From contig JAOAFZ010000002.1 in assembly GCA_026415975.1 (NCBI GenBank), forward strand, positions 49,390 to 113,389: a stretch of DNA of 64,000 nucleotides, written 5' to 3'. Source of the DNA: Patescibacteria group bacterium (GTDB lineage Bacteria; Patescibacteriota; Microgenomatia; UBA1406; GWC2-37-13). The notes beneath the pieces were generated by a model. The model made no database searches. It had not been told where the DNA came from and was given only the letters and a program-made list of their open reading frames with translations. The translations under genes were made by a program, and so were the position numbers. This document shows, piece after piece, positions 8,134 through 44,416 of this stretch (position 1 is the first letter of the stretch; each line of letters opens with the position of its first letter).

Positions 8134-8163
8134 ACTTTCTCTATTGTACCACTCGAGCCTAGG

Positions 8164-26889: not shown

Positions 26890-28020
26890 TCATCTTTTTC
26901 GATGGTGCCACCACCACAGAATCCCTGCACCTGCACCCACAACCAAAAGAACAAGAACTACAGGAAAATACTCCACCCGTCTTTCTACAATCAGTGTCAG
27001 CTCTGGAGCTTGGTCCTCTGCTGAAAGTGCGACTGTCTTGCTTCCAGTAAAACCGTTATCATTCACAGCAAACTCTTCGGTTGTTCCGGTTACTGGCAGG
27101 CGGACAATACCCTTATCGTTTGTTGTTCCTTCCGAGCGGCTGGTTGTGGCCCGTACCAAAACTCCCGCAACACCGCTACCCGTTTTGTCTCTAACCCAAA
27201 TCGTCACGGTGCGTTGTGCCTCTTTTTTTGAGCCTGCATCGTCTTTTGGATTTTTGGGAGCCTTCGTGATCGAGACGAGAGCGGGTTCCTCTGGGGTAGG
27301 TGTGGGCGTTGATGGTATCGGTGCCGAGAGCGCCAGGTTTCTGAAAGAAACCAGCGAGACTGTCTTAGCACTTATTTCGTTAGACCACGGACCGCTAGCG
27401 CACCCGTTTCCTGCTCGAATACGGAAGTAATACCTAGTGCTTGGCCACAGGTGCTCAACAAGATAGTTTCGGCTGCTTTGTCCTCCAATTGGCTCCGCGC
27501 CAAACTCTAGCCCTCCTTCTGTTGTTCCGTATGCGAGCACATAGTGGGTAAGCGGGGGATCTGCTTCTGCAAAGTAGAGCCGGATTGCAGTTGGCGATTC
27601 AGAAATAGCGGAGTAAATCCAGGGAGCTTTTGCACCGGGTGCTTGGCGTTGGCAAACGGGTGGCGCTGGCATTTCTGCCGTGCCTGCTCCAGTGCCTATT
27701 GACGGAGGCGACGCCCCAATTGTGGGAGTAGCAGATGGTGCAGGTGGAGGAGTTTCTGTGGGAGTTGGTGTGTTCGTTGGTGCTAATGCGGGCTCGTACA
27801 ATCCAAACGCCGAGAACTCTGTTGTTGCGCACGTTACCGAATTTTGCACTGCATTTACGACACAGTCTGCTAGCTCATTAAAAGCTGAACCGTTCCACCG
27901 GTACATGGATAGCTCAGATTCACTAACACCAGCGATATCAGTATCGGAGTACTTGAAGGTGATGCTCACTGGCTGATCGAAGGTGGTAATCTCACTGGTA
28001 ACACTGAGCTGGGCATTCAA
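26890..28020 (-). CDS. C-terminal part of the large surface protein (FN3, CarboxypepD_reg-like, C-terminal TM anchor), separated from the upstream ORF by a frameshift
   Basis: An FN3-like segment (STRYYFRIRAGNGCASGPWSNEISAKT), VTIWVRDKTGSGVAGVLV...GIVRLPV, and a terminal VVLVLLVVGAGAGILWWWHHRKR. This frame stays open upstream to 28092 (…TAVSSAIGKPAGLQDVGIAIYNLNAQLSV…), overlapping the end of the 1400-aa ORF. Confidence 0.6.
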   Translation of the reverse strand: MNAQLSVTSEITTFDQPVSITFKYSDTDIAGVSESELSMYRWNGSAFNELADCVVNAVQNSVTCATTEFSAFGLYEPALAPTNTPTPTETPPPAPSATPTIGASPPSIGTGAGTAEMPAPPVCQRQAPGAKAPWIYSAISESPTAIRLYFAEADPPLTHYVLAYGTTEGGLEFGAEPIGGQSSRNYLVEHLWPSTRYYFRIRAGNGCASGPWSNEISAKTVSLVSFRNLALSAPIPSTPTPTPEEPALVSITKAPKNPKDDAGSKKEAQRTVTIWVRDKTGSGVAGVLVRATTSRSEGTTNDKGIVRLPVTGTTEEFAVNDNGFTGSKTVALSAEDQAPELTLIVERRVEYFPVVLVLLVVGAGAGILWWWHHRKR

Positions 28021-31000
28021 GTTGTAGATGGCAATCCCAACATCCTGAAGTCCAGCCGGCTTACCGATGGCACTGCTGACGGCGGTGCGCGGTCAAGCCG
28101 TTGAATCTGAAACTGCGCGGTGCTACCAAAATAGCCAGCTGGAACTGCGAGAGAAATTCCGCGACCTGTTCCATCGAGGAGGGAAATGGTACCGCCTACT
28201 GAGGGAAGTATTGTATCGGTCTCTACCTCAAGAGCCGATGAGCTACCAGCACAACCTGTTGTGGTGATCTCGGCAACTGCACCCTGCCCAATGTTATGGG
28301 CCAGATCAGTGGTGCTTGGTCGCACCACGTAGGTGGTGCAAGGCAGAAGGCCTAGGATAGAAGCAGTGTGAGCGGTAACTCGCGGATAAAGATTTGTTTC
28401 GCTCGTAACGCTGGAGGGCAGGGTTACACCATAGTAAAGACGGCTTGAGCCTGACTCCGTACTGTTCCAGGTTGCGCTGATCGTGGTGTCAGATGGCGTA
28501 TACAGACTACCAAAGATTCCAGGCGGTGTGGTATCTTCTGTGATCGGCTCATTGAAATGCACTGACCAGTTGTAGAGAGCAGAGCTATAAAGTGATGTGG
28601 TGGAATCTGAGTCGCGCAAATTTCCACGAGCAGAATCAACAGAGTCGGCACCGGGGCGTGCGCCGGATACACCGGTATAGGCGTATCTGAGGAGCTGATT
28701 ACTTCCGCTCGGAGTGCTGTCGAGGGTAATTCGTACAGTATCTTGACCATCCATTGCCACGGAACTGATTGATGCTGTGTTTCCGTCGTCGGCGTATTCA
28801 AAGCCCATATGTGTTTGTGCTAAAACCTGTACGGTATCAAAAACCAACGGTGATTCCGGAACTTCGAACCGTACAGAGACAACATCCCCGTTCCGGACTA
28901 CCTCAGCCGGTATGAGTGCAGTTGTGGTCTGCCCGTTGAGTACCCGACTTATGGCCTTGCCATAGTACTCCCTAAGCCGTCGATAGCCTGAGTTTGTAAG
29001 GTAGATGTTATCTGAGGCATACGTAAATTGATAGCGTGGCCCGATCATGTAAATATCCGGGTTGTTTCGTGCGACATTCAGCTGTGCAATAACAAGTGGC
29101 GCGGTTGCTAGGTTATAAGCGGTAAAATTACTGCTTTGATCGATAAAAAATGGAACGTTTCCTGTTTGATCCGCTGCGTTGTTTCCGTCGGTTTCGTAAT
29201 CTTGCTGCCACTGGTTCAAGAAGGTTTCGTAGGCAAGGCCATCGGCAAAGTTAGCTGGGCCGTGAATCATGGCTACACCGGCAAAGCGGTACCCGAACCC
29301 GCCGCTTGCTGCGATCGTTCGCGCGTTTGTTATCTGAGTAATGCCGTTTGCAAACGATGTGGTTGTACCTCCTTTGCGTAGCTGATCATATGTGGCTCCG
29401 GGAATCCCGTTTCTGGTGACCACCATTCCTAGATTGCCTCCAGTAAGCGCCGTGACCGTGTTCCCGAGGGCTGATGCAGGAGTCTCAACTGCAGTTGCCG
29501 GAAGGTTATCGTCTACATCGTCGTTCTCGATCAAGCTCACAAATGCGGTGCCGGTTCCATTGAGCTTTACATTGTTGTATGGCTGTGAGGTAGTAAGAGC
29601 AGGCGCACCATCGTAACCGATTGAAAGGCTTTGGCCAGCAAGAAGTATGTGAAAATACCCAGGCTGAACAGGACCGTAACTTACGCTTTGCACGAGCAAC
29701 CCGTCGGTGGGAGGGGAAGTAGAACGAGGGGTAACCTCGAAGCGCAGGTATCGGCCTTCGTCTGAAGGCGAGACTGTGTACGATTGCGCCGTTGCTCCGG
29801 CAATTGCCGTAAATGGACCGCCGGCAGAAAACGATGACATCCAACGGAAAGTGATGCCACTTTCTGGGTCACCGTTTGGATCAAGATACTGATATGAGCC
29901 AGTTATCGTTTCCCCAGTTGCGACTGTACCGCTTATTACTACGTTTTGTGCAATGGGGGGAGCGGGGGTTGTAGATATGGGCGTTGCGGATTGAATTGCT
30001 GAGGCCGAGCCCATGCCCTGACTGTTTATTGCTGAAACCCAAAACTGATACAGTTGCCCATTTGTAAGTCCGGTTACGATTGCCGAGGTTGCTGTTGATA
30101 GGCCATCTGGGAATACGCTAAAGCTACCACTTGTTCCGGGACGGTATTCAATTTGATAGTCGGTAATTGGAAAGCCGTTGTCTCCAGGCTCTGTCCATGA
30201 CAAAGACACCTGCGCATCCTGAGGAGTTGCGGTAAGGCCGGTTGGAGCATCGGGCACTTGTGCCTGAGACTCCGGGCCGGCTGAGGTTGTTGGTGGGTTT
30301 TGGGCAAACTTTCGAACCAAAACCCAGTCGACTGCCAAATCGGAGATATCGGTTGCCCCCGAATTCGACCCACGAAAATACCCTAGCCAAAGGTAAAACG
30401 ACCCCGACCAGCCTGGGGTATGGGGCGACTCGGTACCTGGTAATTCAGTTCTGTTCCGGTAAAAGTAGACATTTGTACTAGTAATCGCCGTTCCGATTAT
30501 GTACTTTGTACCGGTTGTCATCGACGCAAGTAAGTTGGCGGGGGAAGCAATGTCGTACGATGCACTTGCTCCTGAGGCCGCAAGCCCATAATGATCTGAT
30601 GCGCCACTACCGCGCAAGAAATATGCTAGCGAGGCGGCACTGGGGTTGTTTGAGGAATCGGTGTCTGTCCTGTTGGCAATCATAAGACCGGACTGGCTCA
30701 GATCGTTATTTATCCAGGTTGCCTGAGCTTCTGCAATCATATTTGGTTGCGTTCCAACGGTTGCATTTGTATACACAGCACCGGATTGAATCGTAATGGT
30801 ATCCCCGGCAAGCGAATAACCACTTGCCCCATTGGTAGAGGTCCAAACCGAGCCATCAAGAGTAGTAAAGCTGTCGAAGAAATCAAAGGTTGCACTCCCG
30901 TTTGTTCCTGCTGAGGCAGAAGGGGAGCCATAGTACAAGTATATTGTTTTATCTGACGATGCCGGAATGGTAGGAACTCGTATCCAGATTCGCGTGGATG

Positions 31001-32219
31001 CTGTATTGCAACCATTAGTCCCCTCTGTCTCGATCCAATAGAACAAATTCGTAGTCTGATCCGAATCGCGCACCCGCATGTCGTCACAATCTGCTTGGAG
31101 CTTTCCAGCGCCAATGAGTCCCGCTGTGTCTATGGTAAGGAGCACCTGAAAATCGGATAGAACAAAGGACTCGTTGTTTGTGATTGTAATCGGAACACGG
31201 TATGTCGTACCATCAGGAAAGCTACCTGGAACTATTGTCGGTGTAGGTGTCGGCGTTGGTGTAGGTGTCGGTGTTGGCGTGTCTGTCGGCGTCGGCCCGC
31301 TAAACGGCGAGTCTGCCACCCAAGCAGGCCCGGAAGGTGATCCACCTATATTGAGCGTCCCGTTGCTTGGTCCGCCAGACGCCGAGGAGTAATCGCGCAG
31401 AATGCTCCCTTCGCCTTCATCGAAGTGGTACAAGGAGGCAGTATTCGCATCAGGAATAAATGGTGCAGACGGAAGCGTGAATGAGGATGTATACCGCAAG
31501 TTTGTTGAGATCCGTAACTCATCTAGCTTTCCGTTGTATGACGGGTACGCCGAACCTGCATCATGTTTTTCAGCACCGAGAACAATATAAGGGTCGCGAA
31601 TGCAGATTCCACCCCAGCTGCCGCCGGGACCCTGACAGTAAGGTGTGCTCTGAATGCTCGCAGGGACTCCATCAGGGTACGACACATCGCCATCCGGGCC
31701 ATCCTGTTGCTGTTCGAGCACGCCGTCGACAAATATTGACATCTGTCCATCGGAGTAACGGCGCGTTACAGCAATATGATGCCAGTTCGAATCGGTTACG
31801 TCGGTTGTACCGCAGATGGTTGTTGCCTCATTGAGATCATTTACCACGCCAAATGCAATTGCACCGTTTTCGGTAGGCGAGATACCGTACTTTCTTCCGT
31901 AGTTGAAGCGGTTTTTGTCGTAGATAATGTTTCCGTTAATCCAGTTATTTTGGTTCACATTGCATCCGACGTCTGTTGCACCGGCTCTACTTTGAGTGCC
32001 CGCTTTAATCCAAAATTCGATCGTAAAGTCGGTATCCCCGACATCTGCCGGGCGGTGCGGGGAATCGACAGCGATCACCACCCTGTCCTGATCGAGCGCG
32101 TTCACGCCATTCCCGTAAAATTGGAGTGAGTACTGAGCATCCGCATCCTGTTCTGCGGATATCGAAATAGCCGGCGGATTGGCTACATATTGACGTGTTA
32201 ACACCCAGTCTACAGTCAT
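28017..32219 (-). CDS. large surface protein, intact central ORF (LamG-like, PT linker, DUF2341-like module, FN3, esterase-like region)
   Basis: LamG-like DFTIEFWIKAG...WHHIAVTRRYSDGQMSIFVDGV, then the PTPTDTPTPTPTPTPTPTPT linker. The DUF2341-like module reads YRVPITITNN...CDDMRVRDSDQTTNLFYWIE...IYLYYG. The FN3 segment is PDAPTGLTATPQDAQVSLSWTEPGDNGFPITDYQIEY. HILLAGQSLSIG resembles GQSN-type sialate-O-acetylesterase motifs. There is no signal peptide at Met 32219. Confidence 0.7.
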   Translation of the reverse strand: MTVDWVLTRQYVANPPAISISAEQDADAQYSLQFYGNGVNALDQDRVVIAVDSPHRPADVGDTDFTIEFWIKAGTQSRAGATDVGCNVNQNNWINGNIIYDKNRFNYGRKYGISPTENGAIAFGVVNDLNEATTICGTTDVTDSNWHHIAVTRRYSDGQMSIFVDGVLEQQQDGPDGDVSYPDGVPASIQSTPYCQGPGGSWGGICIRDPYIVLGAEKHDAGSAYPSYNGKLDELRISTNLRYTSSFTLPSAPFIPDANTASLYHFDEGEGSILRDYSSASGGPSNGTLNIGGSPSGPAWVADSPFSGPTPTDTPTPTPTPTPTPTPTIVPGSFPDGTTYRVPITITNNESFVLSDFQVLLTIDTAGLIGAGKLQADCDDMRVRDSDQTTNLFYWIETEGTNGCNTASTRIWIRVPTIPASSDKTIYLYYGSPSASAGTNGSATFDFFDSFTTLDGSVWTSTNGASGYSLAGDTITIQSGAVYTNATVGTQPNMIAEAQATWINNDLSQSGLMIANRTDTDSSNNPSAASLAYFLRGSGASDHYGLAASGASASYDIASPANLLASMTTGTKYIIGTAITSTNVYFYRNRTELPGTESPHTPGWSGSFYLWLGYFRGSNSGATDISDLAVDWVLVRKFAQNPPTTSAGPESQAQVPDAPTGLTATPQDAQVSLSWTEPGDNGFPITDYQIEYRPGTSGSFSVFPDGLSTATSAIVTGLTNGQLYQFWVSAINSQGMGSASAIQSATPISTTPAPPIAQNVVISGTVATGETITGSYQYLDPNGDPESGITFRWMSSFSAGGPFTAIAGATAQSYTVSPSDEGRYLRFEVTPRSTSPPTDGLLVQSVSYGPVQPGYFHILLAGQSLSIGYDGAPALTTSQPYNNVKLNGTGTAFVSLIENDDVDDNLPATAVETPASALGNTVTALTGGNLGMVVTRNGIPGATYDQLRKGGTTTSFANGITQITNARTIAASGGFGYRFAGVAMIHGPANFADGLAYETFLNQWQQDYETDGNNAADQTGNVPFFIDQSSNFTAYNLATAPLVIAQLNVARNNPDIYMIGPRYQFTYASDNIYLTNSGYRRLREYYGKAISRVLNGQTTTALIPAEVVRNGDVVSVRFEVPESPLVFDTVQVLAQTHMGFEYADDGNTASISSVAMDGQDTVRITLDSTPSGSNQLLRYAYTGVSGARPGADSVDSARGNLRDSDSTTSLYSSALYNWSVHFNEPITEDTTPPGIFGSLYTPSDTTISATWNSTESGSSRLYYGVTLPSSVTSETNLYPRVTAHTASILGLLPCTTYVVRPSTTDLAHNIGQGAVAEITTTGCAGSSSALEVETDTILPSVGGTISLLDGTGRGISLAVPAGYFGSTAQFQIQRLDRAPPSAVPSVSRLDFRMLGLPSTT

Positions 32220-33220
32220 ATCGGTAATATCGGTGGTGCCAGCGTTTATACCATTAAAATGGCCCAGCCATCAATAAAACGGATCCGACCAGGTGCCATC
32301 ATAGGGGCTGGTCGGACCCGTAACGACCGTGCGATCCAGGTAGTAGTAAAGGTTGCTGTTAGTAACTGCCGTTCCGATAATGAACTTTTGGTCGAATGCA
32401 ATTGCTCCAAGATCGTCAACTGGCGCAATATCGTAGCCTGCCGCGCTACCTGAGGCACCGTTGCCAAACAGATTGTTCACACTGGCACTGCCACCGCGGA
32501 GAATAAAAGAAAGTGACGCGGCGGTGCCGTTTCCTGAGGTGATGTTGCGTGTGTCTGCGATGATAAGACTGGCAATACCAGCCTGAGTTGCGCTATTCCA
32601 GCTCACCTGAGCCTCAGCTATCGTGTTTGGCTGAGTGCCAACGGTTGTGTTGGTGTAAACCGCTCCAGAGTTTATCGTAAGGGAACTTCCGCTCTAAGAG
32701 TATCCCGATACGCCATTAGTCGAGGTCCAAACAGAATTATCAAACGAGGTAAAATCATCGAAGAATGGGAACGTATTTGCTCCGTTTGATGCCGCAGGCA
32801 ACGCGGAATCTCCGTAGTAGACGTAGATATATCGCGTAGAATTTGCCGGTATCGAGGGTACTTCCACCCAGATTCAGGTAGCAGTTGTGTTGCAGCCTGT
32901 GGAGTTATCAGTTTCGATCCAGTAATCAAGGAGAGTGGACTCATCTGCGTCCCGAAAACGCAGATCGTTGCAGTCGCTACGCAACTTGTTTGCTGAGATT
33001 AAAGCGGCAGTATCGAGAGTAACGAGAATCTGGTAGTTCGTAAGTGCTGAGTTGCCGGTATTATCGATTGAGATGACACGGCGGTACTGAGTGTTGCCTG
33101 GGCCTGAGGCAAAGACCTCTGGTGCTTGGTACGAAAACCTAAGTAGAAGCCGATTACTCCGACTCCCACTGCAAGAAAGAAAGCCCACGAAAATCGTATT
33201 AGAGTACTTATTAGCCTCAT
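32220..33220 (-). pseudogene. disrupted N-terminal portion of the same surface-protein gene (signal-anchor plus a first DUF2341-like module)
   Basis: ATG 33220 gives MRLISTLIRFSWAFFLAVGVGVIGFYLGF (TM anchor). A frameshift at the T-run near 33133-33138 leads into YQAPEVFASGPGNTQYRRVISIDNTGNS.... This is the same frame as ORF 28017-32219 but is interrupted by TGA 32874-32876, TAG 32694-32696 and TGA 32271-32273. Each stop aligns to R, L and L respectively in the downstream paralogous module. Confidence 0.75.
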
Positions 33221-33386
33221 TATACAAAGTTTTTATACAAAGTTTTTGGCAGTATGTCTTCTGCAAGCTCGTACTAAATCTGCAATAAGTGTTTTTAGTA
33301 ACATCTACATCAAAGAGTCATTTGGTTTGGCTTAAGCTTCGAATGAAGGCGTAACAAATAGAAACTGTAAGCGATTGCTTAAGAGG

Positions 33387-33617
33387 CTATTTTTTCCTTA
33401 AAGCTCCCACTGCCTCGCCCTCGATTGGAATAACTGGATCTATCAGTGTTTGGGAACTCATCAGCATGCTCCCCAGAAGCATGATAATGCCGACAATCTG
33501 GCTCGCGGTAAACGTATTCTGAAAAAACACTACCCCAATTACCAGTGCCGATGCCGGCCAGGCAAGCTCACAAATGGTGGCGACACGAGCTGGAGTGTGT
33601 TTTAATCCTCGGTAATA
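33387..33617 (-). pseudogene. orphan 3'-terminal fragment of an EamA/DMT transporter gene
   Basis: It encodes ...YYRGLKHTPARVATICELAWPASALVIGVVFFQNTFTASQIVGIIMLLGSML..., homologous to only the last ~75 residues of the EamA gene at 41736-42737. Homology ends at 33617. Confidence 0.8.
33550..33617. repeat. 68-bp perfect direct repeat, left copy (candidate att core)
   Basis: Identical base-for-base to 41899-41966 (gatgccggccaggcaagctcacaaatggtggcgacacgagctggagtgtgttttaatcctcggtaata), compared by eye. Confidence 0.9.
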
Positions 33618-33648
33618 GGGTAATTCGGCCGCCGGATGTAATTCTCTG

Positions 33649-34116
33649 CTACCGGATATAGTCTTCAAGGAGGTGATAGTATTTATCCTGAATGTCTTTC
33701 CGGACCCAGCGTTCGGTGAGGCGTTTTATTGAGCCATTTTCTGCACGGATAGCTGTACAGTTTTCATAATAGAAGCCGGAGCCGGTGGCCAAAAACAGAT
33801 ACGAGGGATCCCAGCGCCGAAGTATTGTATGAATCCTGTCCGCGATCGTCTCACGATCAATACGGCGCATATAGTCTACTTCCACGACCATGACATCGGT
33901 TTTATCCTGCGAAATCAATACATAATCCGGTGCGGCGGTAAGATTCTCGAGAATTTTGCGGACATAGGGGTGCCGTTTATGCTCACTAAGCGTCTCGATG
34001 GAGTCGGCGTGACCGATCGGGATTACCGTATATCTGCCAGCCTCGCGGAACATTTGTTCAAAAACAGTAGCAGTGATCTTCCGACGAATGAGTCTGTGGA
34101 GAGCTCGGGTTTCCAT
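33649..34116 (-). CDS. small PD-(D/E)XK-like (Hjc/restriction-endonuclease-fold) protein
   Basis: The pattern VFEQMF...PDYVLISQDKTDVMVVEVDY fits the E...D...E-x-(K/D) layout of the fold. This assignment is tentative. TATACT sits 6 nt upstream of the ATG. Confidence 0.45.
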   Translation of the reverse strand: METRALHRLIRRKITATVFEQMFREAGRYTVIPIGHADSIETLSEHKRHPYVRKILENLTAAPDYVLISQDKTDVMVVEVDYMRRIDRETIADRIHTILRRWDPSYLFLATGSGFYYENCTAIRAENGSIKRLTERWVRKDIQDKYYHLLEDYIR

Positions 34117-34122
34117 AGCCTC

Positions 34123-34128
34123 AGTATA
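34123..34128 (-). promoter_or_regulatory. -10 box (TATACT) 6 nt upstream of ATG 34116
   Basis: The plus-strand agtata reads TATACT on the minus strand. Confidence 0.45.
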
Positions 34129-34490
34129 GTACTTCCGAATGAAAAAAGTCAGTGTCCCCGCACACGATTTCTTCGATGATCAAGTCTTCATACACTCCTT
34201 CCCAATCTCTGTGTGTACGGGTCGGAAAGTTCTTCTTCGGACATGCGATGCCTTAAGAGGGCAAACCGGAAGTGGCCGTACTATATCTTGGGGTTTACTT
34301 CAACAACTCGGGAACGCAGATGCCGAGGAGAAACCAGCGAAGCTTGCAACCGTGGAAACTTTCTTTTATACACAACAGAAAAGAAAGAGTATAGGGAGTG
34401 CCATCTTTCGAGCGTTGCAGGTTGATTCTTTCGATGCTGTAGCTAAAATTAGTGTCGAATCGCCTCGATTTCTGATTTGGTACTGTTTTC

Positions 34491-35398
34491 TCACCCAATC
34501 AACATCCCGTCCGACACCCACCCCCGCAGCCGCTCCGGCAGTACTTCGTCTATCCTCCGCATATCCTCATCCACAATCTCAATCAGCGTCAGGCCATACT
34601 TTTGGTAGATCGCGACCTTCTCCTCCCGCCGTTCCGTGTACACCGGGTTATCCATTCCCCAGGCCTCGATATATACGTTGCCCTTGCCGCAATCGGGGAT
34701 CCAGAAGTCGCAGAAAAGGCATTCGGCTACCGGAACCCGCCGTTCGTACCCATGGCAGATCCGGTTGCGGAAGAGCCAGTCGTCGATAATCTGCTCCATG
34801 CGGCTGCGGACAATGTGCCCGTCGGTACAATAGATGTCCGGGCGGGGAAGTCTGCTAGTGGGGAGGTGCAGATCGCACTCTGTGTTTGTGGTTTCCGGAA
34901 GCGGGCGTTGCAGGTGCTGCTGCCGGAACACGGCAAAGAGTTTGGTGCAGGCCTCACCGGAGATCTGAGTATGGGGGTATTCGCCGGTGTCGGTGCGGGT
35001 AAAGGGAACGATGTTTTGCAGGTGGTCGCGGTGAATGCGCCGGTACGAGCTGGTAGGCTGTATGCGTACCTGCACGGGAAGCCGGCCGCCCCAGGCATCC
35101 GGCTCAAATTCCCACTGTACCCCTGAGGCGGCTACGAAGGGCCCCAGGAACTCGTGGGTGGAGTAGTTGTACAGAAAAAGCGAGTTCCCGGGCTGAACGC
35201 CATCAACAAAGTGATAGCTGCAGCCATGCCAAAGAGGTTGCGATCCAGGCATTCCGCCTCGGACTGAGCGTTGCAGCAGAAGATATAGGCATGGTCGGGA
35301 AGAGTTTGATCGAGTAGGGGGGCTGTGTCGGCAGCAGCGGGTATCCCGGGAGTGCTCCCTGGGAACTTATCCTGAGAAGTTTGTGCTGGTATTTGCAT
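34491..35398 (-). pseudogene. DCD (PUA-like) domain fused to a PD-(D/E)XK-type nuclease domain; one frameshift near 35200-35230
   Basis: ORF 35132-35398 gives HAYIFCCNAQSEAECLDRNLFG. ORF 34491-35252 continues in another frame with SYHFVDGVQPGNSLFLYNYSTHEFLGPFVAASGVQWEFEPDAWGGRLPVQVRIQP. Together they closely match the plant-type DCD consensus (IFxCNxxTxxECxxxxLFGLP...PGxxLFLxNYxxxxLxGxFxAxSxG...P.QV). The C-terminus VRSRMEQIIDDWLFRNRICHGYERRV...CDFWIPDCGKGNVYIEAWG...YQKYGLTLIEI resembles the nuclease module found at the N-termini of HelD/Rep-like helicases. Confidence 0.65.
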
Positions 35399-35403
35399 GA
35401 TTT

Positions 35404-35409
35404 ATTCTA
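35404..35409 (-). promoter_or_regulatory. -10 box (TAGAAT) 5 nt upstream of ATG 35398
   Basis: The plus-strand attcta reads TAGAAT on the minus strand. Confidence 0.45.
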
Positions 35410-35629
35410 ACGGAAAGGTATGCAGGAGTGTCAAATTCAGTTTGTGCTAGAATACTATAGTCTCTATAGAAACCATGACGTAACTCGCGAAACCGTTCCT
35501 CGCCTTTGCTTCAAAAACGCTTTCTGATCCGTCCGTAAGCAAGGGGGTATGAACCTGCTGAATGCATATGAATGGTGAAGCTGGAGCACATACTTTACAC
35601 TGGGGATTTTTGTCAGAATTTATGTCTAG

Positions 35630-37195
35630 ATGGTATCTGCTTTACAGAGTAGAATTCATGACATTATTTTAGCGTTCACTATGTGCGAGCATCAGAGCAT
35701 ATCAGAGTTGTCGCTAGCACACCAGCGAGCAATAGATTGTATCCAGATTATTCCGAAAGAAAAATTGGAGCAGATTGAAGCAGATTCAGACAGCTCGCCC
35801 CCAACTATTCAGGGAACCGGTGATACACTTCTTACTGCCAGCACAGCGGAAACTGGCGCTCCTGAATTTGAACTATATTACGCAGTAGCAACAAACAGAA
35901 TTGCAATACAGGCCAGAGAACTGCTATTAAAGGGAGTTTCCCGAAAACAGCTCCTCGAGATGCGATCCGAGCTTGCTCGTTTCCAGAGGCACAGTTTAGC
36001 CCTCTATCTTGGGGAAACCGAATTGAGATTACCCCGATCAACTCAAGATGTCATGGAGATGGAAGTAAACAATTACGCCACCCTGGTAAATATGGTCAAT
36101 AGAGCAATCATGCTTCAGATTAGAGACCTGGCAACAACAGATTCTGAGCCAGACATTACCGTGCGGGCTTTAGATCTTGCCCATATGTATCTTGAAATGG
36201 AGGAAAAAAACTTGGCGGTAGAAAGACGTATACTGCAAGAAGAAGTTCGCATTAGCGTACATCGTGATGTGATGTGGCAAGCAAGAACATATGCATGCAA
36301 TGGGTTCATGAACAGTCCGGGCTGGCATAACCTCAGCGATAATGATAGAGAAAGTTTCTTGAAACTGAGCGAACACGACCGGGCTTTTCTACTTGGTCTT
36401 GAATTAAAAGCACAACAAGCCGGCATGGCACGAGATCGTATCAAGCTTGTAAGTGTGCACGATATAGATGCAAACATAAAGGATGCAGAAATCGGTCCGT
36501 CGAAACCGGGAAATGCCATAGGCACACGGATTGACAAACTCGACAGGATAACCGATATACATCCGAGACAGCGTCTACAACTAACCGACAGTTCTCAAGT
36601 TGATCCTGATCCTCAAATTGCCGAAGTTTGCAATGCAATGTACGTCCGATCCGGATTGAGAGATTCAGTAATTTTTAAGGATGCAAGAAATTTTGCAGAG
36701 CGCTGCTGTCGTGCACAACTTCCCTTTTATTTACTGACAGCAAATATGTACCTTTTTGGTAAAGGAACTGCTATGGGTCTTGGATTTGATCATGCGGATG
36801 TTCAAGGAATGCACCACAATAGCTATGCTTCTCAGGGGAAACCTCACCGGCTGATGGAAATTGCTCTCGAACACTTGGATTATTCAATATTCCTCTTTGT
36901 AGATGATCAGGATAGAAGAAGTTGCGAAGCGATAGCCCGTGGCAGTATCTTCGAAGCCGTGCACCTTCCACTGCAAGAGGTCTACTTTTTTTGTGCTCGT
37001 GTACAGGGCGAAGGGGAGCAAGGCGGACACCGATTCGCAGAAAGACTTGCGGAAAAAAATATCGCATTTGGGCAAAACAGACGTGAATCACGGGAAGATG
37101 GTTTGTATGGATATCAGGGAGCAAACCGGCTCCTGGATCTTTATACTGCATGGCAAGAAGGGAAATTTAAGTATTTGACCCTGTTGTGTTCGTGA
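35630..37195 (+). CDS. hypothetical protein (521 aa, no recognisable domain)
   Basis: A long ORF in coding-like sequence, first gene of a same-strand four-gene run. No motif was recognised by eye. Confidence 0.5.
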   Translation: MVSALQSRIHDIILAFTMCEHQSISELSLAHQRAIDCIQIIPKEKLEQIEADSDSSPPTIQGTGDTLLTASTAETGAPEFELYYAVATNRIAIQARELLLKGVSRKQLLEMRSELARFQRHSLALYLGETELRLPRSTQDVMEMEVNNYATLVNMVNRAIMLQIRDLATTDSEPDITVRALDLAHMYLEMEEKNLAVERRILQEEVRISVHRDVMWQARTYACNGFMNSPGWHNLSDNDRESFLKLSEHDRAFLLGLELKAQQAGMARDRIKLVSVHDIDANIKDAEIGPSKPGNAIGTRIDKLDRITDIHPRQRLQLTDSSQVDPDPQIAEVCNAMYVRSGLRDSVIFKDARNFAERCCRAQLPFYLLTANMYLFGKGTAMGLGFDHADVQGMHHNSYASQGKPHRLMEIALEHLDYSIFLFVDDQDRRSCEAIARGSIFEAVHLPLQEVYFFCARVQGEGEQGGHRFAERLAEKNIAFGQNRRESREDGLYGYQGANRLLDLYTAWQEGKFKYLTLLCS

Positions 37196-37291
37196 CAATA
37201 CCCTGACATTCTGCTGATGCTATTCGTTTGTCAAGATTTTGCAACCCGTGCGAGAAATAATTTCTAATCTACCCGTTATACTTAACGCAAC

Positions 37292-39451
37292 ATGCCACTT
37301 GAACTAGGGAGCGCAAACCCCGACCCGGAAATCGAGGCGTGCAACGTCGTTTGCTCAGCTCACGCACGTATTAAAGAAATGCTAGAGCAAGTTGAGGAAC
37401 GCCAACAACAGCTTTTGCTATTACAGGTACAAGCTGCCGGATTTACCCTAAATCGCCTTGCGGAAATCACTAGTCAAGAAGAGTATGAAAAATATATTGC
37501 AGAGCGTCTTACCTTGGCACAACAGGTTTCAGTCGCAAGGGAACTGACCGATCTTGAGAGTATGAAAGGAGTGCTTTTAGGGGGTGGCAACCTTGATGTC
37601 GAATTAGTAGCGATGACGAATAACATGATACAACGAATCGCAGTAAGCGGCCAACTCGCTGGTACTCCAGAATATATTCGCGCAGTTCTGGAGGGTTTAC
37701 GTAATACTGCCGCACTCCGGTTACGGCAAAATGCAGAACAGCAAGGAGGTGCCGGGTCGCTGCTCCCGGGGCAAGCGCGAATATTGGAGCGTGGTTTCGA
37801 GAGGGTAGCTCAGCTAAATGCGGGAGAGCTGTCCCCAATGCAACTCGAGTGCGTGCTGCAACGACCAGATGTCACCACACTCCTCGAAGCCGCACCCTAC
37901 CTGTTGCTGCAATACCGAACCCCAGGGGAAGGGGAGCATCGGGAGTTAAGTCTGGTTATCAGTCGAGAACAGGGGGGAGAAAACAAAGCGTATCGTAACG
38001 ATAGCAAAATTATCCTCGCCGGCCGCGCTATTGAAATTCCTTTCGAAACTGCCCCGACACATGAGCGTCAGCTCGAAGAATTTTCACGGCGCCTCAGGGG
38101 CTTTGTTAATGTTGCGCAAGTATATTTCCGTAATGGTTTTGAACCCGCAGGAGGGCTCGAAAAGGTATTACGTGAGCAGGCAAAAATATTGGCTGATTTC
38201 GGATACAGTGTTACGTTGATTGGGGGAAATCCACCTAACGAAATGTACGGTCGGGAATTGTTGGAATTATTTCAGCATATTGTAATTGATGGAGCTCATG
38301 AACGCCACCCAACTGCACTGGAAATTGCACGAAAAATGGAAAGTGGTAGCGTGCCGGACAAGTATCAGGAGCATTATGACTACCTATTAAATCAACTCAA
38401 AGATGCGTTAAAACATATGCATATCTGGATCGCGCACAATCCTCATGTTCCGCGCAACCCGCCTTTTACCGCCGCATTACTCGAACTCTGGCGGAATCGA
38501 GAGGCACATAAGCTAAAAAACGCAAGAAAGCTCGCCCTTTGGGTGCATGATGTCGGGCCCGTTATGGAACCCCATAAGTTTCCACCACTAGACGAGTACG
38601 GTCGCTATCCCGAACCCTGGGACTCAACTTTCAACCAGAAACTTAAGGGTCCCGATGTAACCTACTTCTGCGTCTCGAAAAAAGTAGCTGATCAGGTGGG
38701 GAATATTCCACTTCCTCCCGGAAAAGATGAAGCTACATTCCGTGCCCCAGATATCGTTACGATACATCACGGACACGATGTTGAGGCAATGATTAGTCCA
38801 TACCATGAACTCGTAAGGAGAATCATACCGTATATCCGTCGTGACCGTTTTAAGAATGTTATCTTGCAAACAGGCCGTATCGGAGATAGGAAGTGCCAGC
38901 ACCGAAGCATTACAGCATTACGATTTCTGGAAGATACTCAGTTAATTATTACTGGAGCACCAAAGATGACTAATGGCGTCATAGACGACCAATATTGGGA
39001 TTACATCAAGAAGTTAGCAAAATATTTTGACGTGGAAGACCGGATCGTATTTGTTTACGATATCGTTGGACCAATCCCTGACGGCGGAGTCTATGAAAAA
39101 GTGACAGGGCAGCTAGCCCATTTATCCGAAGTCGTAGTAGTACCGTCCAGCTCTGAGGGATTTGGTATCGATGCGGCGAATTTAGCAGGAGTACGTATAC
39201 CAATTGTCGCAACCGACGATCCTGCCTTGAAAGAGGAAAATCTGGGAGATTATGCAACATACGTTCCTACGACAGCCGATGGCATCGAATTGGCGACAGT
39301 GATCGCAACAGTATTGAAAAAACCGGAAGTGAGTCGGCGACGGGAGATTCTTGCGCGGGACTGGAGGGGTCAGATGGAACGTGCGCTCCAGTATCTGGGA
39401 GATTCGAATGGACAGGTGTTTGAGCCTAATAGCGAAAGCGGATATAGTTAA
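37292..39451 (+). CDS. two-part protein: an unknown N-terminal region of about 270 aa plus a GT4-type (GT-B) glycosyltransferase
   Basis: The GT-B N-half starts near VNVAQVYFRNGFEPAGGLEKVLREQAKILADFGYSVTLI. The C-half is VVVVPSSSEGFGIDAANLAGVRIPIVATD (E-x7-E-type motif). TATACT sits 9 nt upstream. Confidence 0.7.
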   Translation: MPLELGSANPDPEIEACNVVCSAHARIKEMLEQVEERQQQLLLLQVQAAGFTLNRLAEITSQEEYEKYIAERLTLAQQVSVARELTDLESMKGVLLGGGNLDVELVAMTNNMIQRIAVSGQLAGTPEYIRAVLEGLRNTAALRLRQNAEQQGGAGSLLPGQARILERGFERVAQLNAGELSPMQLECVLQRPDVTTLLEAAPYLLLQYRTPGEGEHRELSLVISREQGGENKAYRNDSKIILAGRAIEIPFETAPTHERQLEEFSRRLRGFVNVAQVYFRNGFEPAGGLEKVLREQAKILADFGYSVTLIGGNPPNEMYGRELLELFQHIVIDGAHERHPTALEIARKMESGSVPDKYQEHYDYLLNQLKDALKHMHIWIAHNPHVPRNPPFTAALLELWRNREAHKLKNARKLALWVHDVGPVMEPHKFPPLDEYGRYPEPWDSTFNQKLKGPDVTYFCVSKKVADQVGNIPLPPGKDEATFRAPDIVTIHHGHDVEAMISPYHELVRRIIPYIRRDRFKNVILQTGRIGDRKCQHRSITALRFLEDTQLIITGAPKMTNGVIDDQYWDYIKKLAKYFDVEDRIVFVYDIVGPIPDGGVYEKVTGQLAHLSEVVVVPSSSEGFGIDAANLAGVRIPIVATDDPALKEENLGDYATYVPTTADGIELATVIATVLKKPEVSRRREILARDWRGQMERALQYLGDSNGQVFEPNSESGYS

Positions 39452-39496
39452 AGAATCTATCGTGGCATTCGAGCTGAAAGCCTTGGCAACAGTATG

Positions 39497-39536
39497 TTGT
39501 ATCACAAGATACAACAGAACACCGCGGGAACCCGCG
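39497..39536 (+). terminator. two adjacent hairpins after the stop at 39451 (possible attenuator or terminator)
   Basis: TTGTATC-acaa-GATACAA (39497-39514) and CGCGGG-aa-CCCGCG (39523-39536). No U-tract follows, so function is uncertain. Confidence 0.25.
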
Positions 39537-39580
39537 ACACCACGCGATTATTAGATTACAATTTAAATAATAAATAAATA

Positions 39581-40954
39581 ATGGCTACTATCGCTTTTTT
39601 ACATAACGCACTAGGTAAAACAGATGGTGTTTCTCTTGAAGTGGATAAATGGCGCTACGTGCTTGAAACAAAGATGAAGCACAACGTGCTCTATTGTGCC
39701 GGTAACGATGATGTAAGCCATGTTCATTGTGTACCGGAGTTGTCGTTCATGCATCCCCGATCAGAGAAAATTTTACGCAATGCTACCGTCCAGTTAAAAG
39801 ACTTTACCGAAACCGAACTGAAAGAGGAGATTTTTAAACTGAAAGATATTATTAAAACAAAGTTGCTCGCATTCATTAGAAAGCATAAGATCGATCTACT
39901 CATTCCGAATAACCTCCTTTCGGTCGGCTACCACATTCCTGCCTTAATCGCGCTGCACGAGATTATCACCGAAACCAAGATACCGACGATAGCACATAAC
40001 CATGATTTTTATTTCGAAGCCAGTGGCGAGGTGAATCCCACCTGTAAGACCGTCTGGAATCTACTTGATTTATACACTCCGGTACGAGGAAAAAATGTGC
40101 AGAATATCACTATTAACCGTATCGCCCAAGCGGAGCTTTTTGCACGAACCGGCGTAAAAGCACAAGTCGTTCCAAACGTATTTGATTTCAAGCAACCAGC
40201 CTGGAAAGAAGACGCGTACAATGCGGATTTCAGAAAATCTTTTGACATTGGTGAAAACGACATCGTGTTGTTACAAGCAACCCGTATCATGTTGCGCAAA
40301 GGCATAGAAAACGCGATTGACATCGTTGCGGAAATGAATACCCCCGAGAATCGGAGGAGACTGCTGGAACGGAAGTTGTACAACGGCAAACAATTCACGA
40401 AAGACAGTAGAATAATCCTCCTATGTGCCGGTCGCCGTGAGATTTTCGGCACGACTGATACCTATTACAACGGGTTACTGGATCGTGCAAAAAGACAGAA
40501 CGTAGCTATCCGGTTTGCGGGTGAATACGTTAAACATAGTCGTGGTAAGAAAAACGGGAAGAAAGTATATTCATTATGGGACAGCTATGTGCACTCAGAT
40601 TTCGTTTCTTATCCAAGCTGGTGGGAAGGATGGGGTAATCAACTAATTGAAGCAGTCTTTGCACGACTTCCTGTTGTTTTGTATGAATACCCGGTTTATA
40701 AATCGGACATTGCCCGTTCACATCTGGAAGTCGTCTCACTCGGTGACAAGATCTCCTCAATTGACAAAAACGGCCTAGTTAGTATAGACCGCGCAATAGT
40801 ACAGCGTGCTGCCGCGGAGATAGTATCAATCCTTACCGATCCCGCACGATACTCACACATAACAGAGAAAAATTTCCGCATCTGCGCGAAACGGTATTCC
40901 TATGAGGTCCTTGAAGCATTGATTCGTAAGATTATGAAGAAAATCGGAATGTAA
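39581..40954 (+). CDS. GT4-type glycosyltransferase
   Basis: The N-terminus IAFLHNALGKTDGVSLEV, and the C-half DFVSYPSWWEGWGNQLIEAVFARLPVVLYEYPVY, which is the GT-B EX7E region. Confidence 0.7.
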   Translation: MATIAFLHNALGKTDGVSLEVDKWRYVLETKMKHNVLYCAGNDDVSHVHCVPELSFMHPRSEKILRNATVQLKDFTETELKEEIFKLKDIIKTKLLAFIRKHKIDLLIPNNLLSVGYHIPALIALHEIITETKIPTIAHNHDFYFEASGEVNPTCKTVWNLLDLYTPVRGKNVQNITINRIAQAELFARTGVKAQVVPNVFDFKQPAWKEDAYNADFRKSFDIGENDIVLLQATRIMLRKGIENAIDIVAEMNTPENRRRLLERKLYNGKQFTKDSRIILLCAGRREIFGTTDTYYNGLLDRAKRQNVAIRFAGEYVKHSRGKKNGKKVYSLWDSYVHSDFVSYPSWWEGWGNQLIEAVFARLPVVLYEYPVYKSDIARSHLEVVSLGDKISSIDKNGLVSIDRAIVQRAAAEIVSILTDPARYSHITEKNFRICAKRYSYEVLEALIRKIMKKIGM

Positions 40955-40955
40955 C

Positions 40956-41633
40956 ATGCACTTACGCATCCCCTACCTGGACAAAGCGCCAATGGAGCTT
41001 CAGCAGAGGGGTTTTCTCGATAAAATTCCATGGGATTTGTTGCCACCTCACCGGTGTTTGCCATACCATGGAAACAGCCTTACGTATCCAACTTTTTTCA
41101 GAATCGGTTATTCGAAATTCGGATTGTTTGTCAAGATAGAATGTATTGACTCGCGAATCTCAACAAATTACATGACTGATTTCAGCGATATATTCCGAGG
41201 AGATGTTTTTGAGCTCTTTCTGTGGCCAGACACATCTATTCCTGTGTATTTCGAATATGAGATATCGCCACTTGGTGTAGAGCTACCCCTCCTGGTTGCA
41301 AATAACGGCGGTACTTTCATGGGTTGGCTCCCATGGCACTACGAGGAGGACCGCCGGATACACAAGCGAGTTCGTGTTACCGGTGGGTGCGCTGTTGCAG
41401 GGGCGAGTATTACCGGGTGGATAGTAGAGTTGCTATTGCCTTTTGCACTCTTGAAAGGGCTGAAAAACGTTCCACCAATGCCGGGAACACAGTGGAAAGG
41501 CAACTTTTTCCGAATGGATTACGATGATAGTCAAATTGTGAATAAGTGGGAGTGGGATCCGCGCACGAAAGGGGAGTTTCACCAGTTCCGTAAATTTGGA
41601 ACTCTGCACTTTGAAGGCAATCTGGCAGTGTAG
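40956..41633 (+). CDS. CBM9-like / DOMON-like carbohydrate-binding domain protein
   Basis: FFRIGYSKFGLFVKIECIDS..., GDVFELFLWPD, YFEYEISPLG and WKGNFFRMDY resemble the carbohydrate-binding family 9-like fold. Confidence 0.5.
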   Translation: MHLRIPYLDKAPMELQQRGFLDKIPWDLLPPHRCLPYHGNSLTYPTFFRIGYSKFGLFVKIECIDSRISTNYMTDFSDIFRGDVFELFLWPDTSIPVYFEYEISPLGVELPLLVANNGGTFMGWLPWHYEEDRRIHKRVRVTGGCAVAGASITGWIVELLLPFALLKGLKNVPPMPGTQWKGNFFRMDYDDSQIVNKWEWDPRTKGEFHQFRKFGTLHFEGNLAV

Positions 41634-41735
41634 AGTAATTGGGGACCAGATTAGGACGTACCGGTCATAGACGGTACGAAAATATTCCTGGCACGATACC
41701 CTTCGGGGTAAAGCGCCTGGTAATCGGCGTCTCTC

Positions 41736-43505: not shown

Positions 43506-43669
43506 ATTACTATATCAAAATCAATTCATGGAAAAAATACTCAAAAAAAACTGAATACTTGATAAGACTGGCTCCCGGTATTGAATGGGGTGATTTTTTA
43601 ATTAGTATGAGTTTTAGGCAAATATACCTGTCAGGATTCTAATCTTATCGGGGCCTATACTGCCAGCAT

Positions 43670-44340: not shown

Positions 44341-44416
44341 TCCAGCCAAGGAATCGAGTCGCCAATTTTGTTTTGTATAGTTACAGTAAACAGCTCGTTC
44401 TGTTAATGTTATAGGT

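Follow-up and report, generated by a model that had tools for sequence, protein, structure and literature searches.

A disrupted gene joining a DCD domain to a PD-(D/E)XK nuclease, of predicted type IV restriction design, in a Patescibacteria group bacterium

The locus described here, from a 64,000-nucleotide stretch of DNA of a Patescibacteria group bacterium (referred to throughout, at its full length, as the window), raises the question of whether two ORFs in different frames, together with a small neighbouring gene, make up a modification-dependent restriction module, as an original prediction from the sequence had proposed. Nuclease fusions of the PUA superfamily have been shown experimentally to act in modification-dependent restriction, and methyltransferases are rarely adjacent to them. 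[quoted passage not shown] The features of the locus are collected in Table 1.

Table 1. Features of the DCD-nuclease locus and its surroundings, with positions numbered along the window
Feature	Position	Strand	Description
EamA 3' fragment	33387..33668	(-)	Left repeat copy; Pfam EamA E=2.9e-8
155-aa gene	33649..34116	(-)	Predicted PD-(D/E)XK-like fold: E25, P63-D64, E79-V80-x
ORF2, 253 aa	34491..35252	(-)	Remaining DCD domain, linker and nuclease domain; internal ATG at 35252, out of frame with ORF1
PD-(D/E)XK nuclease domain	34524..34835	(-)	Residues 189-292 of repaired protein
DCD (Dev_Cell_Death, PUA-like) domain	34995..35290	(-)	Residues 37-135 of repaired protein; split by frame break
ORF1, 88 aa	35132..35398	(-)	35-aa disordered N-terminal extension, then first DCD strand and helix (HAYIFCCNAQSEAECLDRNLFG)
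Frame-break interval	35207..35228	(-)	One base deleted (or two inserted) by comparison with intact homologues, within GGCATGGCTGCAGCTATCAC
Promoter-like element	35404..35434	(-)	TTGACA (35434-35429), 19-nt spacer, TAGAAT (35409-35404); sequence read directly

The two ORFs, whose translations read HAYIFCCNAQSEAECLDRNLFG... and ...SYHFVDGVQPGNSLFLYNY..., lie in frames one base apart and, when joined, give a repaired protein of 302 aa; past the frame break the rest of ORF1 is an out-of-frame continuation. Scored with a family HMM that was trained on 50 homologues and not on the window sequence, ORF1 gives 23.7 bits by itself and ORF2 228.8 bits, and the repaired protein attains 265.1 bits. Two intact homologues, P0002 (261 aa) and P0003 (240 aa), can be aligned without interruption across the junction. 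To judge from these alignments, the ORFs are pieces of one ancestral gene, and the prediction that they represent a single frameshifted gene is borne out both by the gain in score on repair and by the intact homologues that span the junction. The same prediction had suggested HMM searches with the frame-corrected protein and structure predictions for it and for the 155-aa protein; the searches returned PF10539 and PADLOC PD-DEXK matches, and the models a PUA-like domain and PD-(D/E)XK-like folds.

The repaired protein matches PF10539 (Dev_Cell_Death) with 68.8 bits and E=5.1e-19 (cut-off 27.8) in one contiguous stretch across the junction, corresponding to profile positions 2-104, and the same profile is matched by 51 of the 51 aligned family members. 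AlphaFold2 models residues 1-30 of the repaired protein with a pLDDT under 50; from residue 31 onwards the values exceed 87, and over the DCD domain they exceed 90. Foldseek, run with the whole model, ranks single-domain structures of YTH and MJECL36/EVE highest (E=7e-5 to 1e-3; target-normalised TM 0.55-0.70), and the family profile matches the MJECL36 sequence with E=6e-5. The domain is thus modelled with the pseudo-barrel fold of the PUA-like superfamily, as in EVE and YTH, and the proposal of a bacterial DCD domain of PUA-like class is upheld by the Pfam match and by the YTH/EVE structural matches. The domain family is shared with the plant DCD proteins (NRP, B2 and similar; PF10539), with which the motifs FG, LFLYN, AW and P.QV align; the plant proteins, however, have no nuclease fusion and act in stress and programmed cell death. 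The DCD domain is probably a reader of modified bases; the literature that we searched reports no modified-base ligand for any DCD domain, nor a biochemical ligand for plant DCD. A further Pfam match, to Uma2 (E=0.0029, residues 143-198), lies below the cut-off, covers the end of the DCD helix and the low-confidence linker, and was rejected.

The prediction of a PD-(D/E)XK fold for the C-terminal half of the protein was likewise confirmed, by PADLOC and Bax1 matches, by the order of elements in the model and by conserved acidic residues. Residues 189-292 match two PADLOC phage-defence candidates, PDC-S69 (E=9e-35) and HEAT_CxxC_PD-DEXK (E=8.6e-10), with which the protein has a C-terminal nuclease module of about 100 residues in common. 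It is not itself a PDC-S69 protein, because the match is limited to profile positions 181-282 of 289 and leaves the N-terminal 180 or so positions unmatched, so that the sensor half differs. The best match to a solved nuclease is to the Bax1 endonuclease and reaches only E=9e-4 by sequence profile; it is aligned along the DF...YIE.xG motif, within a core motif, ...DF...(V/I)YIE.xG...Y..rK..K, shared with Bax1 (DUF790) of the archaeal XPB-Bax1 repair complex (PDB 6p66). The Pfam family DUF790 is also matched weakly by two family members. This similarity to Bax1 is marginal, and the DCD-nuclease differs from Bax1 in having neither an XPB partner nor the Bax1 N-terminal domains. The model of the domain has the order alpha-beta-beta-beta-alpha-beta, with pLDDT above 90 throughout, and no nuclease domain stands among the top Foldseek matches of the full-length model. 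In the 51-sequence alignment from which invariant columns were taken, D193, H195, E202, D206, H216, D231, E245, G248 and Y254 are invariant and K261 nearly so, and the window copy keeps them all. We conclude that the C-terminal 100 or so residues are a Bax1-like PD-(D/E)XK nuclease module, one that has no Pfam model of its own in this family and that elsewhere follows N-terminal domains of other kinds (HEAT, wHTH-like, zinc ribbon). The conserved E202, D231, E245 and K261 are proposed as the catalytic residues, an assignment that stays putative because the lysine lies off the canonical E-x-K position, where the sequence is E-A-W.

Taken together, the domain matches and the scan of neighbouring genes describe a reader-nuclease fusion without a cognate methyltransferase, as is characteristic of type IV systems: the Pfam and NCBIfam DNA methyltransferase models found no match among the neighbouring ORFs scanned at window positions 33387-42737 and at two homologous loci (L008 and L009). 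In intact members, the N-terminal DCD barrel, of the EVE/YTH-related PUA-like fold, would recognise a modified base in invading DNA, and the PD-(D/E)XK domain, joined to it by a flexible linker of about 25 residues, would cut the DNA near the recognised base; a nuclease in one polypeptide and without a methyltransferase would follow the design of modification-dependent restriction. Modified-base binding, DNA cleavage and a role in defence are, then, putative functions of the DCD-nuclease. The same arrangement of a single polypeptide with an N-terminal PUA-like reader, a C-terminal nuclease and no adjacent methyltransferase, and with it the mode of action to be expected here, is seen in the EVE-HNH enzymes VcaM4I and TspA15I and in the PUA-PD-(D/E)XK enzymes of the YenY4I group (Lutz et al. 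2019, PMC6765204; Pastor et al. 2021, PMC7897488), from which the DCD-nuclease differs in that its reader is DCD (PF10539) rather than EVE, SRA or ASCH and its nuclease is the Bax1-like module. The paper on the 2019 screen (PMC6765204) nowhere uses the term DCD.

Alternatively, the target of the family might be RNA, or its members might serve as toxins or effectors of abortive infection, and the DCD domain would then read a modified base in RNA, in the way that YTH recognises m6A. Although the structures matched best are YTH domains, which bind RNA, 6mA in DNA is the ligand of an archaeal YTH-McrB fusion; and while eukaryotic DCD probably binds modified RNA, according to Bell et al. 2020 (PMC7641849), and RNA targeting is predicted for a subclass of type IV systems (PMC11090510), the PUA-nuclease fusions tested to date cut modified DNA and Bax1, to which the nuclease domain is closest among solved structures, is a DNA endonuclease. 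We regard action on RNA or as such an effector as improbable, and prefer that of a DNA-directed type IV enzyme.

The family is larger than had been supposed. Among the best 149 representatives, at least 81 clusters at 50% identity carry the DCD domain together with the nuclease, and homologues intact in one frame occur at loci in MAGs of Saccharibacteria, Bacteroidota, Omnitrophota and Planctomycetota. With these clusters in bacterial MAGs, the DCD-PD-(D/E)XK family is far commoner in mesophilic bacteria, and taxonomically broader, than the 2020 survey indicated. The fusions of Bell et al. 2020 (PMC7641849) have the two-domain architecture and the EVE-like pairing of sensor and nuclease in common with the window gene, and their association with type I restriction genes is matched here at one of the five DCD-nuclease neighbourhoods inspected (L001), where an EcoEI_R_C gene and a GmrSD_N gene flank the homologue P0002. 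The neighbours at three others (L002, L009 and L008, the last being the Saccharibacteria copy) are mostly housekeeping or unknown genes. The window copy differs from the published fusions in being frameshifted and outside a defence island, its neighbourhood consisting of core genes and an operon of glycosyltransferase and mannosylglucosylglycerate-synthase-like genes.

As the DCD-PD-(D/E)XK architecture had already been predicted (PMC7641849), it is not new, and the window copy is an additional, disrupted member which, being broken and having neither a partner gene nor a defence island, is by itself of little weight. The interest lies in its intact relatives. We found no biochemical characterisation of any member of the DCD-nuclease family in the literature searched, and suggest tentatively, as a possibility not far from evenly balanced, that P0002, P0003 and the Saccharibacteria copy are working type IV enzymes whose cleavage specificity reveals the base recognised by DCD. 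If so, that specificity would be the first direct read-out of the modified base that DCD recognises, and would give a biochemical function to a domain that for two decades has been familiar only from proteins of stress and cell death in plants. Since sensor and nuclease are fused in a protein of about 250 aa, the intact homologues are convenient reagents for studying DCD binding, a question that bears on the plant DCD proteins too.

The DCD-nuclease gene stands out from its surroundings in composition, with a GC content of 58.5% and a GC3 of 72.8%, against 48.6% GC for the window and 44-60% GC3 for its neighbours, and it is missing from the syntenic slot in three relatives (L003, L004 and L007). 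On this comparison of sequences it is a gene of foreign origin, horizontally acquired, and it would have entered a variable slot flanked by the core gene EamA on one side and the 155-aa core gene on the other. There it would be transcribed from its own leaderless-type promoter: the TAGAAT box of the promoter-like element ends 5 nt upstream of the start codon at 35398. The TTGACA/TAGAAT site was not listed by our promoter scan because the scan was limited to spacers of 16-18 nt; around the locus the promoter and terminator scan did not rise above shuffle expectation. TAnnnT boxes had been noted 5-6 nt from the ATGs of both the DCD gene and its neighbour, and both are present, but they are not specific to the pair, since 20 of the 45 ORFs of the window carry this leaderless-type signal.

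Both genes had further been placed at the left edge of a repeat-bracketed segment. The direct repeat exists (33388-33617 and 41737-41966; 230 nt, 78% identical), but an element-like meaning does not follow from it: the right copy is the 3' end of an intact EamA transporter gene at 41736-42737, and the left copy is a duplicate of that end, its translation being 72% identical to residues 253-333 encoded by the complete gene. Of the ORFs scanned in the bracketed segment, none matched an integrase or transposase family of Pfam or NCBIfam. The segment was considered as a mobile element and this weak reading was set aside, given the diverged EamA 3' duplication and the core gene and glycosyltransferase operon that lie inside. 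The glycosyltransferases were also considered, and rejected, as DNA-modifying partners: the 719-aa protein has only a faint GT4-conflict match (E=0.021), and the 457-aa protein is similar to mannosylglucosylglycerate synthase (E=1e-111). An Rfam scan gave a single tRNA, distant from the locus.

The frameshift itself had been placed near 35200-35230, and a scan of repair positions with the family HMM agrees closely: a 1-nt insertion at 35216-35221 is best (265.1 bits), on a plateau of at least 263 bits that extends over 35207-35228. As it stands, the gene can be read only in two frames. Direct reading of GGCATGGCTGCAGCTATCAC shows no homopolymer, repeat tract or X_XXY_YYZ slippery heptamer, which rules out programmed -1 frameshifting and a phase-variable tract. 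A one-base deletion in this interval, inside the DCD domain, would then have interrupted the gene, and most likely makes the window copy a recently inactivated pseudogene; this reading is the likelier because of the foreign composition and the variable slot, in which other genes have decayed (a DUF2341 region with three nonsense codons, a PfkB remnant and the EamA fragment). A biological origin of the frameshift is presumed. An exact-sequence look-up and two scans of metagenome DNA gave no independent copy of the allele, and a protein search gave no match of at least 90% identity besides the window's own.

The break might also be an error of sequencing or assembly, in which case the organism would carry an intact and active 302-aa DCD-nuclease. 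The gene bears this one lesion and no second mark of decay, its invariant and catalytic positions are all kept, its promoter-like element is undamaged and a single base suffices for repair; the absence of additional decay fits an error equally well. However, there is no homopolymer at the break, none of the other long ORFs in the list for the window is interrupted, and the decay nearby is genuine, being due to nonsense substitutions and not to indel-type errors. We consider an error unlikely, though with an appreciable chance of being correct. Very unlikely, by comparison, is the expression of ORF2 alone from its internal ATG as a 253-aa nuclease with a truncated sensor. That start has GAGG 4 nt upstream and the nuclease domain is complete, but starts led by an SD sequence are almost absent from the window (2 of 45 ORFs), 35252 has no TAnnnT box before it, the product would lack the strand and helix with which the DCD barrel begins, and selection against an unregulated nuclease is expected. 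A recently inactivated pseudogene remains the reading that we prefer.

There is finally the 155-aa neighbour, proposed originally as a second nuclease of the module. Its predicted PD-(D/E)XK-like fold is supported: the model has a pLDDT of 90.8, and Foldseek matches it to Hjc, RecU, influenza PA-N and SPARDA nucleases (E=5e-4 to 1e-2, TM 0.3-0.5). Its homologues are all 155 or 159 aa long, and the motif-III lysine is present in one of 11 members. A partnership with the DCD-nuclease in a two-gene restriction module, to which adjacency on the same strand and the nuclease-like fold might point, is nevertheless hardly credible, as a spacer of 374 nt lies between the genes, a separate promoter-like site (CTGACT-18-TATACT) stands 6 nt from the ATG of the 155-aa gene, and the GC content of that gene is 48.9%, against 58.5% for the DCD-nuclease gene. 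The 155-aa gene lies in the same EamA...Aldedh-regulator-GMD synteny in L003, L004 and L007, all without the DCD gene, and no homologue of it was found in the DCD-nuclease loci fetched from elsewhere. Since it is conserved in synteny, as a core gene, in related genomes without the DCD gene, it is no partner of that gene. Thus, of the modification-dependent module first predicted, the two-gene form fails on synteny and co-occurrence, and the single-gene type IV reading stands, in keeping with the published prediction (PMC7641849) and the neighbours of P0002. The 155-aa gene is a lineage-conserved, resident core gene with a nuclease-like fold, unrelated to the DCD gene, and its product defines a small conserved family of predicted PD-(D/E)XK-like fold in an uncultivated lineage.

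We conclude that the minus-strand ORF1 and ORF2, which overlap in two different frames, are pieces of one gene, because a single-base repair raises the score against a family HMM and intact homologues align across the junction. When the ORFs are joined at ...RNLFGMAA and SYHFVDGV..., the Pfam model PF10539 (Dev_Cell_Death) makes a single contiguous match to the resulting 302-aa repaired protein, spanning the junction (residues 37-135, profile positions 2-104) with a score of 68.8 bits (cut-off 27.8, E=5.1e-19). In an independent check, a family HMM built from 50 homologues, with the window sequence excluded, gave 23.7 bits for ORF1 alone, 228.8 bits for ORF2 alone and 265.1 bits after repair. 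The best repair position in a scan with this HMM is 35216-35221, and scores stay at 263 bits or more across 35207-35228, so that both the single frameshifted gene of the original prediction and its placement of the lesion at 35200-35230 are borne out. Two intact homologues found by word-indexed search, P0002 (261 aa, 36% identity) and P0003 (240 aa, 34%), align without a break past the junction.

Features of the window around the disrupted DCD-nuclease gene
Feature	Position (strand)	Description
DUF2341/LamG/fn3 ORF	28017-32219 (-)	1400 aa
Upstream extension of the same frame	32220-33266 (-)	In-frame stops TGA 32876, TAG 32696, TGA 32273
EamA fragment	33387-33668	Decayed gene near the DCD-nuclease gene
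Direct repeat	33388-33617 / 41737-41966	230 nt, 78% identical
155-aa gene	33649-34116 (-)	
ORF2	34491-35252 (-)	253 aa
ORF1	35132-35398 (-)	88 aa
Plus-strand cluster	35630-41633 (+)	Four genes
Cluster gene 1		521-aa protein, no family match
Cluster gene 2		719-aa GT4 protein, ~280-residue unknown N-terminal region
Cluster gene 3		457 aa, mannosylglucosylglycerate synthase-like (NF041101, E=1e-111, under the equivalog cut-off)
Cluster gene 4		225-aa protein, no family match
PfkB-family sugar-kinase pseudogene	43600-44420 (+)	

The frameshift is probably genuine, marking a recent pseudogene. A sequencing error would fit a copy with one lesion alone and every conserved residue kept, yet it seems rather unlikely, given that the break interval (GGCATGGCTGCAGCTATCAC) is free of homopolymers, that long unbroken ORFs of up to 1400 aa occur elsewhere in the window and that clear gene decay lies close by, in a DUF2341 region, a PfkB remnant and an EamA fragment. 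The collections searched contained no second copy of the frameshifted allele. The frame of the DUF2341/LamG/fn3 ORF extends upstream for ~350 codons, through a stretch that is 52% identical to residues 330-627 of the ORF itself and contains a DUF2341 domain (E=5.5e-25). Since its three in-frame stops align to R, L and L, respectively, of the internal paralogous copy, they resemble nonsense point mutations within the N-terminal portion of what, judging from the sequence, was once a gene of ~1750 codons. The PfkB remnant, of which one fragment matches PF00294 (E=5.9e-20), is spread over different frames (N-terminal, middle and C-terminal parts), contains stops and has apparently lost an internal segment; it lies between the EamA and PRPP-synthetase genes, within 1.7 kb that contain no ORF of at least 120 aa. 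Programmed -1 frameshifting of the DCD-nuclease gene is unlikely because the break has no slippery site.

An AlphaFold2 model of the repaired protein, made from a 51-sequence alignment, has a mean pLDDT of 85, exceeding 90 for residues 36-162 and 189-292 and being low for residues 1-30 and a linker at ~163-188. The top Foldseek matches in the PDB are solely YTH domains and the EVE-type MJECL36 (E=7e-5 to 1e-3, target-normalised TM 0.55-0.70), and the family profile also matches the sequences of MJECL36 (E=6e-5) and PH1033. The predicted structure, together with these profile matches, confirms the proposed membership of the N-terminal domain in the PUA-like class. The PD-(D/E)XK-type assignment of the C-terminal half also stands: residues 189-292 match the PADLOC defence-candidate models PDC-S69 (E=9e-35, limited to profile positions 181-282 of 289) and HEAT_CxxC_PD-DEXK (E=8.6e-10) and, at the profile level, the Bax1 nuclease domain (6p66, E=9e-4, over ...DF...YIE.xG...Y..rK), and the predicted secondary structure, alpha-beta-beta-beta-alpha-beta, follows the order of the PD-(D/E)XK core. 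The nuclease module has no Pfam model, DUF790 being matched weakly in just two of 51 family members. Residues D193, H195, E202, D206, H216, D231, E245, G248 and Y254 are invariant in the 51-sequence alignment, with K261 close to invariant, and all of these are retained in the window copy. We infer that E202, D231, E245 and K261 are the putative catalytic residues, with the lysine off the canonical E-x-K position.

An exhaustive HMM search of 1.84 billion representatives gave 6141 matches with E<=1e-3, of which 199 reached E<=1e-30. Of the 149 best representatives, the window's own left out, 65 have a single DCD domain with the nuclease and 16 have two, 52 have the nuclease module after another N-terminus (HEAT repeats, wHTH-like, zinc ribbon), and the remaining 16 are DCD only. 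In P0090-P0163, the Bax1-like nuclease module of the window gene (~100 residues) lies behind diverse N-termini (HEAT repeats, wHTH-like, double zinc ribbon, unknown); the module also occurs in PDC-S69, PDC-S68 and HEAT_CxxC_PD-DEXK, and has the look of an effector domain that is widely shuffled among candidate defence proteins. A genome-collection scan found full or partial copies of the family in MAGs of Saccharibacteria, Bacteroidota, Omnitrophota, Planctomycetota and others, and a scan of viral contigs very few. The DCD match in one Planctomycetota MAG (VRUL01000045.1, L022 8001-8271) falls into two tblastn segments (8001-8141, 8149-8271) that differ in frame, and may represent a second family member with a frame break. 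The P0002 gene directly follows an EcoEI_R_C gene and is close to a GmrSD_N gene; three other homologue loci (L002, L008, L009) have mainly housekeeping or unknown genes around them, with no Pfam DNA methyltransferase recorded in their neighbourhoods. The overall picture is of a solitary, shuffled gene that combines sensor and nuclease in the design of a type IV modification-dependent restriction enzyme.

This architecture is already known from computational prediction. Bell, Wolf and Koonin (2020; PMC7641849) described fusions of prokaryotic DCD domains with PD(D/E)XK nucleases and with McrB-like domains, reported their association with type I restriction systems and inferred a role in the restriction of modified DNA. 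The window gene shares the DCD and PD(D/E)XK architecture but is disrupted, and is an additional example; the single modest advance is a larger family, spread more widely over MAGs of mesophilic bacteria, than the 2020 description implies (PMC7641849). Experiments have established the EVE-HNH enzyme VcaM4I and the YenY4I PD-(D/E)XK group as modification-dependent, and PUA-superfamily nuclease fusions usually lack neighbouring methyltransferases (PMC6765204, PMC7897488). The term 'DCD' is absent from the text of the 2019 screen of such nucleases (PMC6765204), and the literature searched yielded neither a biochemical study of the DCD ligand nor a paper naming PDC-S69. The DCD barrel of intact members would recognise a modified base, probably by flipping it into a pocket as EVE and SRA readers do, and this would tether or license the PD-(D/E)XK domain to cut the DNA nearby, a host without that modification being spared self-damage. 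Inactivation, as seen in the window copy, would be favoured if the host DNA carries the mark, or by simple loss of selection. With 5mC, 5hmC, 6mA or another base as candidate marks, the YTH-like matches of the model slightly favour 6mA, and an argument from EVE favours modified cytosine (PMC7641849); that the family acts on an RNA target is a minority alternative.

The fusion stands and its reading as modification-dependent restriction is plausible, but the two-gene module once proposed with the 155-aa gene does not hold. This gene always lies between EamA and aldehyde-dehydrogenase genes in this lineage (window, L003-L007), including relatives without a DCD gene, no homologue of it occurs in any DCD-nuclease locus fetched, and it has a 374-nt spacer from the DCD-nuclease gene, its own promoter-like site and native composition; these features all show that it is a resident core gene and no partner. 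Its product has no match in Pfam, NCBIfam or PADLOC. Nine of its ten homologues are exactly 155 aa long (54-65% identical) and the tenth is 159 aa (41% identity in the search, 37% in the alignment). As predicted, it is nuclease-like at the fold level: the confident model (pLDDT 90.8) has as top Foldseek matches Hjc, RecU, influenza PA-N and the SPARDA nuclease, which we take to be PD-(D/E)XK-fold nucleases, at modest values (E=5e-4 to 1e-2, TM 0.3-0.5). The family, in which E25, P63-D64 and E79-V80 are invariant and the motif-III lysine is kept solely in the most distant member (D, E, A or L in the other 10 of 11), is a small one with a PD-(D/E)XK-like predicted fold.

Syntenic contigs of relatives (L003, L004, L007; amino-acid identity to the window 54% to 89%, gene by gene) share the order EamA ... 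155-aa gene ... aldehyde dehydrogenase, Trans_reg_C regulator, GDP-mannose dehydratase, and carry no DCD gene. In the window, the variable slot between two core genes, EamA and the 155-aa gene, is expanded to 7.6 kb, and both the plus-strand operon and the DCD-nuclease gene, on the minus strand, lie in it; the operon may be an insertion that encodes a compatible-solute or glycoside pathway. The DCD-nuclease gene has a foreign composition, indicative of horizontal acquisition: its GC content is 58.5% and its GC3 72.8% (ORF2), against 44-53% and 44-60% in neighbouring genes and a GC of 48.6% in the whole window. As predicted, a direct repeat brackets the segment. One copy forms the 3' end of the intact EamA gene, and the other is a displaced 3' fragment of EamA, found downstream of the 155-aa gene; the arrangement is suggestive of an old scar, left by duplication or recombination, at a variable hotspot. 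The bracketed-segment ORFs scanned against Pfam and NCBIfam gave no integrase or transposase match. The EamA fragment is 72% identical in amino acids to the window's own EamA and 60-61% to that of relatives.

A near-consensus promoter-like element (TTGACA, 19-nt spacer, TAGAAT), read from the sequence, ends 5 nt ahead of the ATG at 35398. The TAnnnT boxes noted before are present at both genes but are not specific to the pair: 20 of 45 long window ORFs have such a hexamer 3-9 nt 5' of the start codon, and just two of the 45 a Shine-Dalgarno-like motif. Leaderless mRNAs appear to predominate in this organism. Very commonly the TAnnnT box lies exactly 6 nt from the start, as in TATAAT-6-ATG and TATACT-6-ATG.
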